From positions 60,001 to 92,000 of the forward strand of contig NZ_CP142525.1 in NCBI RefSeq assembly GCF_051097895.1: DNA of 32,000 nucleotides. The letters run 5' to 3'. How positions within the stretch are numbered: position 1 is the first letter of the stretch; each line of letters opens with the position of its first letter. Below, one piece after another: positions 28,033 to 30,522 of the stretch. Under the pieces are notes generated by a model that made no database searches, was not told where the DNA came from, and was given only the letters and a program-made list of their open reading frames with translations. The translations under genes and the position numbers were made by a program. The stretch is from Psychrobacter sp. HD31 (lineage in GTDB: Bacteria > Pseudomonadota > Gammaproteobacteria > Pseudomonadales > Moraxellaceae).

Positions 28033-30522
28033 ATGAAAAACGTTATTGTAAAGATTTATAACACGAAAGAACAAATATCAGAAGCGACTGTTATCACCAA
28101 AGACGGAGAGCCGACGATTATCCAAGCAGGTGAAAAAGTCAACTACGAATTTTTTGACGAATCAATTGGCCGTGGACCGAACCACATCATCACCAAACGT
28201 GTTGGTGATGACTTACACGTATCATTTGAGCGCGAAGGTAAAGAAACTGACTTAATCATTGAAGGTTTTTACTTAAACGATGATCAAGCACTGATTGGCT
28301 TACACGAAAGTGATGCATATTACTACTACATACCAGATACAGGAGAAGTATACGACTACGTTACCCAGCTAGAAGCAGGTGCCGTAGAAGGACAAGCACT
28401 GGGTGGAGAAGAATTTGTAAGCCCCTTATGGATTGCCGGTTTTCCATGGTGGTTAGCAGCTCTTCCACTAGCTGCAATCCCATTTATTGATGATAAGGAT
28501 GATAGCAAGCCTAAGCCTGCGAACCCACCGGTAGCTGAAGATGATAAAGAGACAGGCAAAACTGGAGAGCCAGTTAAAGTTGACGTATTAGGCAATGACA
28601 CAGACCCTGAAGATGACATCGACCCTAAAACGGTTAAACTGATTGACCCAACTGGCAAAGAAGTTACTGAATTACCAGTAGACGGTGAAGGTACATGGAC
28701 AGTTGACCCAACAACAGGCGAAGTAACCTTTACGCCAGAAGATGGTTTCACAGATGACCCAACTCCAGTTAAATACACAGTAGAAGATACAACTGGTAAC
28801 AAGTCAAACCCTGCAGAGGTTACAGTTGATTATCCTCAGAACCCACCGGTAGCTGAAGATGATAAAGAGACAGGCAAAACTGGAGAGCCAGTTAAAGTTG
28901 ACGTATTAGGCAATGACACAGACCCTGAAGATGACATCGACCCTAAAACGGTTAAACTGATTGACCCAACTGGTAAAGAAGTTACTGAATTACCAGTAGA
29001 CGGTGAAGGTACATGGACAGTTGACCCAACAACAGGCGAAGTAACCTTTACGCCAGAAGATGGTTTCACAGATGACCCAACTCCAGTTAAATACACAGTA
29101 GAAGATACAACTGGTAACAAGTCAAACCCTGCAGAGGTTACAGTTGATTATCCTCAGAACCCACCGGTAGCTGAAGATGATAAAGAGACAGGCAAAACTG
29201 GAGAGCCAGTTAAAGTTGACGTATTAGGCAATGACACAGACCCTGAAGATGACATCGACCCTAAAACGGTTAAACTGATTGACCCAACTGGTAAAGAAGT
29301 TACTGAATTACCAGTAGACGGTGAAGGTACATGGACAGTTGACCCAACAACAGGCGAAGTAACCTTTACGCCAGAAGATGGTTTCACAGATGACCCAACT
29401 CCAGTTAAATACACAGTAGAAGATACAACTGGTAACAAGTCAAACCCTGCAGAGGTTACAGTTGATTATCCTCAGAACCCACCGGTAGCTGAAGATGATA
29501 AAGAGACAGGCAAAACTGGAGAGCCAGTTAAAGTTGACGTATTAGGCAATGACACAGACCCTGAAGATGACATCGACCCTAAAACGGTTAAACTGATTGA
29601 CCCAACTGGTAAAGAAGTTACTGAATTACCAGTAGACGGTGAAGGTACATGGACAGTTGACCCAACAACAGGCGAAGTAACCTTTACGCCAGAAGATGGT
29701 TTCACAGATGACCCAACTCCAGTTAAATACACAGTAGAAGATACAACTGGTAACAAGTCAAACCCTGCAGAGGTTACAGTTGATTATCCTCAGAACCCAC
29801 CGGTAGCTGAAGATGATAAAGAGACAGGCAAAACTGGAGAGCCAGTTAAAGTTGACGTATTAGGCAATGACACAGACCCTGAAGATGACATCGACCCTAA
29901 AACGGTTAAACTGATTGACCCAACTGGTAAAGAAGTTACTGAATTACCAGTAGACGGTGAAGGTACATGGACAGTTGACCCAACAACAGGCGAAGTAACC
30001 TTTACGCCAGAAGATGGTTTCACAGATGACCCAACTCCAGTTAAATACACAGTAGAAGATACAACTGGTAACAAGTCAAACCCTGCAGAGGTTACAGTTG
30101 ATTATCCTCAGAACCCACCGGTAGCTGAAGATGATAAAGAGACAGGCAAAACTGGAGAGCCAGTTAAAGTTGACGTATTAGGCAATGACACAGACCCTGA
30201 AGATGACATCGACCCTAAAACGGTTAAACTGATTGACCCAACTGGTAAAGAAGTTACTGAATTACCAGTAGACGGTGAAGGTACATGGACAGTTGACCCA
30301 ACAACAGGCGAAGTAACCTTTACGCCAGAAGATGGTTTCACAGATGACCCAACTCCAGTTAAATACACAGTAGAAGATACAACTGGTAACAAGTCAAACC
30401 CTGCAGAGGTTACAGTTGATTATCCTCAGAACCCACCGGTAGCTGAAGATGATAAAGAGACAGGCAAAACTGGAGAGCCAGTTAAAGTTGACGTATTAGG
30501 CAATGACACAGACCCTGAATGA
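28033..30522 (+). CDS. adhesin 5' fragment: Bap/LapA-like N-terminal module, hydrophobic segment, then 6.3 tandem repeats
   Basis: The N-terminus (VIVKIYNTKEQISEATV...DLHVSFEREGKETDLIIEGFYLND) resembles the prefix/retention domain of T1SS giant adhesins. PLWIAGFPWWLAALPLAAIPF is hydrophobic. The repeats are CshA-fibril/cadherin-like (VLGNDTDPEDD...GEGTWTVDPTTGEVTFTPEDGFTDDPTPVKYTVEDTTGN). The fragment ends at the TGA created by the deletion. Confidence 0.8.
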   Translation: MKNVIVKIYNTKEQISEATVITKDGEPTIIQAGEKVNYEFFDESIGRGPNHIITKRVGDDLHVSFEREGKETDLIIEGFYLNDDQALIGLHESDAYYYYIPDTGEVYDYVTQLEAGAVEGQALGGEEFVSPLWIAGFPWWLAALPLAAIPFIDDKDDSKPKPANPPVAEDDKETGKTGEPVKVDVLGNDTDPEDDIDPKTVKLIDPTGKEVTELPVDGEGTWTVDPTTGEVTFTPEDGFTDDPTPVKYTVEDTTGNKSNPAEVTVDYPQNPPVAEDDKETGKTGEPVKVDVLGNDTDPEDDIDPKTVKLIDPTGKEVTELPVDGEGTWTVDPTTGEVTFTPEDGFTDDPTPVKYTVEDTTGNKSNPAEVTVDYPQNPPVAEDDKETGKTGEPVKVDVLGNDTDPEDDIDPKTVKLIDPTGKEVTELPVDGEGTWTVDPTTGEVTFTPEDGFTDDPTPVKYTVEDTTGNKSNPAEVTVDYPQNPPVAEDDKETGKTGEPVKVDVLGNDTDPEDDIDPKTVKLIDPTGKEVTELPVDGEGTWTVDPTTGEVTFTPEDGFTDDPTPVKYTVEDTTGNKSNPAEVTVDYPQNPPVAEDDKETGKTGEPVKVDVLGNDTDPEDDIDPKTVKLIDPTGKEVTELPVDGEGTWTVDPTTGEVTFTPEDGFTDDPTPVKYTVEDTTGNKSNPAEVTVDYPQNPPVAEDDKETGKTGEPVKVDVLGNDTDPEDDIDPKTVKLIDPTGKEVTELPVDGEGTWTVDPTTGEVTFTPEDGFTDDPTPVKYTVEDTTGNKSNPAEVTVDYPQNPPVAEDDKETGKTGEPVKVDVLGNDTDPE

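Follow-up and report, generated by a model that had tools for sequence, protein, structure and literature searches.

A 2-bp deletion in the seventh of nine near-identical repeats splits a giant adhesin gene in the consensus sequence of Psychrobacter sp. HD31

Introduction

A 32,000-nucleotide stretch of the Psychrobacter sp. HD31 genome (contig NZ_CP142525.1, positions 60,001 to 92,000, forward strand; hereafter the window, numbered from its first letter) carries the gene of a giant surface adhesin, whose central part consists of nine tandem 318-bp units (106 codons each) at 28521–31380. The seventh unit is two bases short, and the gene is consequently written as two open reading frames (ORFs). 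The question raised by this locus is whether the deletion is a real mutation that silences the adhesin or an error of the consensus sequence within a near-perfect repeat array. A first-pass annotation, made from the letters alone, had drawn attention to the deletion and had offered a pseudogene, an OFF variant in a mixed population, and an assembly error as explanations. Here, we describe the deletion and its consequences for the reading frame, place the gene in its family, and weigh the explanations against each other.

The repeat array and the deletion

Tandem Repeats Finder reported a period of 318 bp, 9.0 copies, and 99% matches at 28521–31377. The unit starts, which were located by anchoring on the first 31 bases of the unit, fall at 28521, 28839, 29157, 29475, 29793, 30111, 30429, 30745, and 31063; the spacing is thus 318 bp throughout, except for unit 7 with 316 bp. 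The sole gap in the MAFFT alignment of the nine units occupies columns 91–92 of unit 7, which lacks one AG/GA dinucleotide. Owing to a 1-nt microhomology, loss of AG and loss of GA are indistinguishable. The 21-mer GACCCTGAAGATGACATCGAC occurs eight times in the array and the 19-mer GACCCTGAATGACATCGAC once, at 30511, which bears out the earlier count of eight intact copies and a single GA-less copy 7. A 41–43-nt pattern of the site has nine matches in the window versus 0 expected. The lesion is directly read from the sequence and is not a statistical feature. The 2-nt phase jump that had been noticed in the antisense ORFs was also recovered, with ORFs at 30496..30708 and 30742..31026 against the periodic 30426..30710 and 30744..31028.

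28521..31380, plus strand: array of nine 318-bp units (Tandem Repeats Finder and column-by-column comparison)
30429..30744, plus strand: unit 7, 316 bp, the only lesion-bearing unit (unit alignment)
30511..30522, plus strand: lesion site GACCCTGAATGA; AG/GA gone after 30519, giving TGA at 30520–30522 (sequence)

Units 2–6 are mutually identical, and unit 7 is the same apart from the deletion: the 90 nt 5' of the lesion and the 226 nt 3' of it are identical to unit 6. A synonymous C/T difference (GGC/GGT) at column 136 divides the array into blocks: units 2–7 have T and units 1, 8, and 9 have C, which indicates that one unit was recently amplified to give units 2–7. The tail of unit 9 has diverged by four substitutions. 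The repeats of relatives are far more diverged: none are detectable at the DNA level in the orthologous locus L004, and locus L002 has three 324-bp units at 94%. Unit 7 is the last unit of the identical block, and its deletion was copied into no other unit. Judged from these patterns, the lesion is the array's youngest event.

Reading frames and predicted products

The ORF from ATG 28033 stops in frame 1 at TGA 30520–30522 after 829 amino acids (aa), while frame 2 is open from 30500 to the window end at 32000 and encodes the remainder of unit 7, units 8–9, and a Calx-beta domain. The predicted new stop and the passage from frame 1 to frame 2 were therefore both found as described. The repeats of the window matched the Pfam families CshA_repeat (E = 1.2e-99), Big_9 (E = 8.8e-58), and Cadherin_4 (E = 4.1e-45), as well as TIGR04225 with 69 bits per repeat unit; the downstream frame-2 part matched CshA_repeat (E = 2.7e-45) and Calx-beta (E = 1.6e-7). 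When GA was put back in silico, 1,323 codons without a stop were obtained within the window. The downstream frame is open over 1,498 nt (30503–32000) of a sequence with 39% GC and encodes recognised domains, and the 2-bp lesion is on these grounds taken to be recent.

28033..30522, plus strand: 5' ORF of the split adhesin gene, with an N-terminal module and 6.3 repeat units (ORF; CshA_repeat E = 1.2e-99, Big_9, Cadherin_4)
28033..28527, plus strand: unique N-terminal module (N-module), an all-beta core of ~125 aa followed by a hydrophobic stretch SPLWIAGFPWWLAALPLAAIPFI and an acidic linker (conservation, AlphaFold)
30503..32000, plus strand: 3' ORF, frame 2, to the window edge, with the Calx-beta region from ~31381 (frame translation, Pfam)

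The frame-2 ORF opens past TAG 30497–30499, and its first ATG, at 30503, lies 17 nt ahead of the TGA. In normal units the corresponding ATG is always out of frame; only through the deletion is it brought into frame with the downstream part. Since its sole Shine–Dalgarno (SD)-like element is an AGG only 2 nt upstream, a weak termination–reinitiation product lacking the N-module is conceivable at best.

The 829-aa product lacks all downstream domains, as had been proposed, with units 8–9 and the Calx-beta domain falling in frame 2. The proposed loss of a C-terminal type I secretion system (T1SS) signal is supported by relatives: those with the same architecture carry RTX nonapeptides 100–170 aa from their C-termini, while the signal itself is not visible in the window, as the gene runs past its edge. 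Because relatives carry the RTX/secretion domain at the end that is lost here, the 829-aa fragment should stay in the cell without being exported.

A probable T1SS-exported giant adhesin

In three relatives (P0072, P0073, and P0074), the N-module is followed by CshA/Big_9/Cadherin_4 repeats, Calx-beta domains, and RTX nonapeptides 100–170 aa from the C-terminus, and the order of these parts is that of the window gene. HemolysinCabind was found close to the C-terminus of relatives that share the N-module (2172–2206 of 2302, 2094–2127 of 2282, 1952–1984 of 2118, and 2556–2590 of 2705 residues). The orthologue of FDAARGOS_221 matches NF045619 (BapA/Bap/LapF family large adhesin), T1SS-143 repeats, VCBS, and HemolysinCabind. 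Based on the architecture of the relatives, these family matches, and the T1SS genes that lie beside the locus in P. jeotgali, the window gene is placed among the T1SS-exported giant RTX adhesins, in a BapA/Bap/LapF-like family of Psychrobacter and Moraxella. Export of T1SS RTX adhesins requires the C-terminal secretion domain, and their retention at the surface requires the N-terminus (PMC10990149). Intact relatives are about 2,100–5,131 aa long, compared with 829 aa for the window product as written and at least 1,323 aa once repaired, and intact orthologues are single ORFs of 2,282 aa (CP030241) and 4,208 aa (R86515).

Protein searches with the N-module returned no conspecific adhesin allele (best matches 71–75% identity), nor did those with the unit-9/Calx-beta segment (best 70% identity); the closest N-module, from a Psychrobacter metagenome-assembled genome, is 72% identical. 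The nearest OmpA protein is 90% identical and belongs to another lineage (87% nucleotide identity), in which only 38 adhesin codons were reached. Exact-protein look-ups of the 829-aa product, PurF, and OmpA (with two alternative starts) gave no record, a metagenome scan with a site pattern accepting both alleles gave 0 matches, and a literature search on the run accession gave no match. The gene itself therefore appears to be new to the record, with nothing closer than ~70%; the kind of adhesin is known.

Orthologues in finished genomes

Among six assessable finished genomes, the adhesin gene carries real lesions in three, is intact in two, and is affected by assembly noise in one. An IS3-family insertion sequence (IS) element interrupts the orthologue of FDAARGOS_221 after aa 241 (L004 10714–11879) and that of DAB_AL43B after aa 2,360 (L010 18157–19346). 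The former call is based on a transposase gene (HTH_Tnp_1 + rve) between the two adhesin halves; an inverted-repeat search around this element resolved no clean IS ends. In TAE2020, one of the Tyr codons that encode the conserved YYYY motif has become TAA, and the remainder of the gene is missing. In WY6, the adhesin, OmpA, pirin, and TonB-dependent receptor genes are all fragmented. The two independent IS insertions at different positions suggest that the adhesin gene may be recurrently inactivated in Psychrobacter, and the BAP genes of Acinetobacter present the same picture of split and truncated alleles (PMC4647330). In the comparison of orthologous loci that the first-pass annotation had pointed to, the gene is inactivated in three relatives by IS insertion or by nonsense mutation plus deletion; none of these lesions is an intra-repeat frameshift, and no conspecific allele was found.

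Real lesion or consensus error

In the reading that we prefer, a genuine and very recent 2-bp deletion in unit 7 would have produced a null (OFF) adhesin allele. Translation from ATG 28033 would stop after 829 aa, the N-module and 6.3 repeats being kept and the Calx-beta and RTX/secretion parts lost; the fragment would not be exported, and no adhesin would be present at the surface. The deletion would be an ordinary spontaneous mutation rather than a designed switch. We consider the chances of such a real, recent lesion, with the mixed-population case included, to be evenly balanced, and explanations other than a real lesion or an artefact to be very improbable. The rival explanation, which we regard as quite possible though short of probable, is that the gene is intact, and that the loss of two bases from one unit arose in the long-read draft consensus and stayed uncorrected. 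Near-perfect repeat arrays are where long-read consensus errors escape short-read polishing (PMC8812927). Here, nine 318-bp units at ≥99.7% identity could be spanned only by reads of >3 kb, and short reads or multi-mapping long reads would have no unique placement among them. A single copy is hit, and no other decay is seen in the 1.5 kb downstream. There are precedents as well: finished Acinetobacter genomes contain split BAP genes for which sequencing error has been suspected, many splits in this protein class may be errors of that kind, and bapA of S. Typhimurium LT2 is annotated as a frameshifted pseudogene, yet its protein is made (PMC4647330). The WY6 orthologue, fragmented along with its neighbours, points in the same direction.

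The type of error that such an artefact would require is, however, atypical. The deletion affects CTGAAGATGAC, which is neither a homopolymer nor a microsatellite, and the errors left in long-read assemblies mostly concern homopolymer length (PMC8812927); the first-pass annotation had likewise noted that this context makes a simple homopolymer miscall less likely. Eight identical contexts were called correctly, with the intact-site form GAAGATGAC against GAATGAC in unit 7, whereas a context-driven systematic error should strike several of the nine identical contexts and not one. Reads mis-piled among identical units would be expected to yield an intact consensus instead of a deletion. The base consensus also appears to be of high quality, because the 110 homopolymer runs of ≥6 in the window coincide with no broken gene and no indel relative to L007, the one same-species contig that was found (via CvpA; short-read Logan assembly, run SRR29889421, 99.8%), which ends 1.5 kb before the adhesin. 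The comparison with this contig showed 8 substitutions and 0 indels over 3,905 bp, including 11 homopolymers of ≥6, and all 25 other window genes checked match Pfam profiles end to end, in contrast to WY6 with its several fragmented genes. The genuine inactivation of the orthologue in three relatives, and the parallel case of Acinetobacter BAP (PMC4647330), are further points in favour of a real lesion.

Several points weigh against a real lesion or its proposed effect. The deletion rests on a single consensus sequence, in a 2.9-kb array of ≥99.7% identity, and the clean unique flanks say little about accuracy within the array, because errors in near-identical repeats escape polishing. The lack of secondary decay in the 1.5 kb downstream, which suits a recent mutation, fits an artefact equally well. 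WY6 shows that assembly errors alone can break up this adhesin gene. That secretion is lost is inferred from relatives, as the 3' end of the gene lies beyond the window.

A sub-case of the real lesion is that intact and deleted alleles coexisted in the sequenced sample, and that the majority allele or an arbitrary one was reported. Adhesin-null variants are commonly selected in liquid culture, which counts for this case. The lesion as the youngest event of the array, uncopied and in the last unit of the identical block, would suit it too, as would the ease with which contraction or conversion could remove the deletion. On the other hand, the site has no simple-sequence tract that would give ON/OFF variants at a high rate, and one consensus sequence cannot show heterogeneity. 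We consider a mixed population unlikely.

Recoding, slippage, and reversion

An alternative to both a silenced gene and an artefact is that the break is functional, either through a programmed +1 shift at GAA-UGA-C, by which DPE would be joined to DID and a full-length protein minus one Asp be made, or through a deliberate two-ORF system. A +1 shift at the lesion would restore the domain almost exactly (junction peptide GNDTDPEDIDPK, intact form GNDTDPEDDIDPK), UGA-C is a weak stop context, and the 3' part can be read in frame from ATG 30503. However, re-pairing in the P site fails, as the tRNA-Glu shifted from GAA to AAU would keep one of three pairs; there is neither an upstream SD-like stimulator nor a slippery site; and the site is missing from the eight sister units and from the intact orthologues (single ORFs of 2,282 and 4,208 aa). 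As for a functional split, the break cuts through a folded repeat domain, and the AGG at 2 nt from ATG 30503 is too close. We regard recoding or a functional split as extremely improbable.

Three specific mechanisms were tried as candidates and rejected. Transcriptional slippage was dismissed for want of an A/T run at the lesion. Simple-sequence phase variation was set aside in view of the intact context CCTGAAGATGACATC, which holds no homopolymer or short tandem tract and only a 1-nt microhomology. A programmed, prfB-like +1 frameshift was rejected from the sequence context, with no re-pairing, no SD-like element, and no conservation of the site.

The lesion could nevertheless be removed by recombination, because the units are in-frame modules of 106 codons and unit 7 equals unit 6 on both sides of the deletion. 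In silico removal of unit 7 reopens the frame, and frame-restoring crossover points make up 12.4% of single-unit contractions and 46.8% of all contractions. Unequal homologous recombination or gene conversion would thereby delete or overwrite the lesion and leave an in-frame gene of at most eight units. For this reason the OFF state may be metastable, and reversion would go along with an altered number of repeats. That the lesion acts as a recombination-driven reversible switch, with RecA-dependent unit loss or conversion turning the adhesin ON at appreciable frequency, seems improbable to us, and such a switch is unlikely to be a selected mechanism. If it did exist, it would couple ON/OFF switching to variation in stalk length, as the repeat number would change in each cycle, and would represent, in a cold-adapted free-living bacterium, a mode of phase variation other than simple-sequence slippage.

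The N-terminal module

Neither Pfam nor NCBIfam has a family that matches the first 165 aa of the adhesin. When the representative library was searched exhaustively with phmmer, 567 relatives of the N-module were obtained, in which the match always starts at residue 1 and many of which are 2,100–5,131 aa long; a word-indexed search found relatives in Psychrobacter, Moraxella, and Acinetobacter, which points to a Psychrobacter-like host within the Moraxellaceae. The AlphaFold model is all-beta, with a pLDDT of ~90 for residues 1–100. No PDB match was found by sequence, and no significant PDB neighbour by Foldseek. The N-module may serve in retention or anchoring and represent a type of its own. 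In an alignment of 32 N-modules, no di-alanine LapG site was conserved, the AA pairs of the window protein (LAAL and LAAI) included, while GQALGG at 120–125 was. Other conserved motifs are DLHVSFE..G..DLIIEGFY and YYYYIPDTGE. The hydrophobic PWW...AGLG segment after the module was modelled poorly.

The OmpA-family partner and the T1SS neighbourhood

The adhesin gene is preceded by the gene of an OmpA-family lipoprotein.

27032..27994, plus strand: OmpA-family lipoprotein gene, lipobox LTGC (Pfam OmpA E = 3.7e-22; NCBIfam OmpA-like lipoprotein anchors)

This gene ends 38 bp before the adhesin ATG, with no terminator in between, and the two genes are therefore probably co-transcribed; a terminator-like site (26716–26739) and a promoter-like site (26856–26885) lie upstream of it. 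An OmpA gene directly precedes the adhesin gene in all eight relatives (L004, L005, L006, L008, L009, L010, L011, and L012). The lipoprotein thus looks like a conserved, undescribed partner of the adhesin family, one that may anchor the secretion or retention apparatus to peptidoglycan. In P. jeotgali (L011), the genes of an outer membrane efflux protein (OEP, TolC-like), an ATP-binding cassette (ABC) protein, and a membrane fusion protein (MFP, HlyD-like) directly precede the OmpA–adhesin pair, while the T1SS genes of CP030241 are not adjacent to it. No ABC, MFP, or TolC-like T1SS genes, no lapG, and no lapD were found in the 28 kb upstream of the adhesin.

The Logan contig L009 (SRR29889418, 87% nucleotide identity) shows another arrangement, in which the pair is preceded at 1–426 by the 3' end of a repeat-type gene with a D/T/K-rich product, and not by purF. 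The genomic neighbourhood of the OmpA–adhesin locus would, on this evidence, not be fixed.

Other features of the window

All eight differences from the same-species contig L007 are synonymous third-position substitutions in two clusters (23553–23736 and 26409–26454), with four in a 184-bp stretch of the dihydroorotate dehydrogenase gene (DHO_dh, 23374–24408) and four in a 46-bp stretch of purF. Such clustering is more suggestive of short recombination tracts than of point mutations scattered over the sequence.

Rfam and tRNA scans of the whole window gave no matches. The 1.28-kb stretch at 13664–14945, between the Ala_racemase_N (YggS-like) gene (12941–13663) and priA, contains no ORF of ≥100 aa, no Rfam match, and no tRNA, and includes an imperfect 24-bp tandem repeat at 14274–14324. 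Upstream of the RNase E gene (852–4391, minus strand), ~960 bp without an ORF (4392–5350) are consistent with a long regulatory rne leader; no Rfam model scored above threshold there. An ORF of 368 aa with a TTG start (9054–10160) matches no Pfam family and adjoins an RnfH-family gene and a BamE-domain gene. Two adjacent paralogous genes on the minus strand (17428–19221 and 19582–21369) encode long-chain acyl-CoA dehydrogenases of 597 and 595 aa, both with an Acyl-CoA_dh_C extension.

Significance

If real, the lesion makes the strain a naturally occurring null mutant of its main T1SS adhesin, which bears on attachment and biofilm phenotypes measured with it. A real lesion would also join the IS insertions and gene remnants of relatives as evidence that this surface protein, a costly one, is often lost or silenced in Psychrobacter. 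In the case of an artefact, the locus would serve as a warning, since annotation would turn an intact gene into a pseudogene or a pair of hypothetical proteins. Either way, a frameshift within a near-perfect adhesin repeat array should be confirmed at the level of reads before any interpretation. The gene family, with its unnamed N-module and OmpA-lipoprotein partner, is widespread in Psychrobacter and Moraxella but poorly described, and may merit attention in its own right.

Comparison with known systems

BAP of Acinetobacter baumannii is likewise a giant surface protein of the Moraxellaceae that is built from arrays of 80–110-aa immunoglobulin-like modules, and its gene often appears in finished genomes as two or more separate ORFs, with mutation and sequencing error debated as causes (De Gregorio et al. 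2015, PMC4647330). Some of the BAP lesions have been shown to be genuine; one is the stop at residue ~737, which 42% of sequence type 2 (ST2) strains share (PMC4647330). A giant adhesin split by a frameshift, together with the question of mutation or error, is therefore well known, and the lesion is of an ordinary kind. The window gene differs from BAP in that its N-module has no detectable match to the named BapA prefix domains (Pfam, NCBIfam), that its array is an amplification of a CshA-type module of 106 aa whose copies are ≥99.7% identical at the DNA level, and that its lesion is known from one sequence and is not lineage-wide.

The LapA-type adhesins of Pseudomonas fluorescens share the plan of the window family, with an N-terminal module, long repeats, Calx-beta or ligand domains, and a C-terminal RTX part, and are exported through an ABC–MFP–outer membrane factor (OMF) system, a two-step T1SS in which the N-terminal module serves in retention (PMC10990149). 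Unlike them, the window N-module has no conserved di-alanine LapG site and a fold unmatched in the PDB, and the conserved partner of the window gene is an OmpA-family lipoprotein gene, with no lapG, lapD, or T1SS genes in the 28 kb upstream. Since neither a conserved di-alanine, nor lapG or lapD nearby, nor a PDB neighbour of the model was found, membership of the LapA subfamily is not demonstrable.

The closest counterparts are the Psychrobacter and Moraxella loci L004, L006, L008, L010, and L012, which share the N-module (43–68% identity), the upstream OmpA gene, and the domain order with the window, and several of which are inactivated. Their lesions are caused by IS3-family insertion or by nonsense mutation plus deletion and not by an intra-repeat frameshift, and their arrays are diverged, whereas that of the window is nearly perfect. 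The lesion also resembles those of slipped-strand contingency loci, in which a frameshift turns a surface protein off and may revert. Unlike those loci, the window gene has no short tract, and its reversion would require RecA-type recombination of 318-bp units and would change the repeat number.

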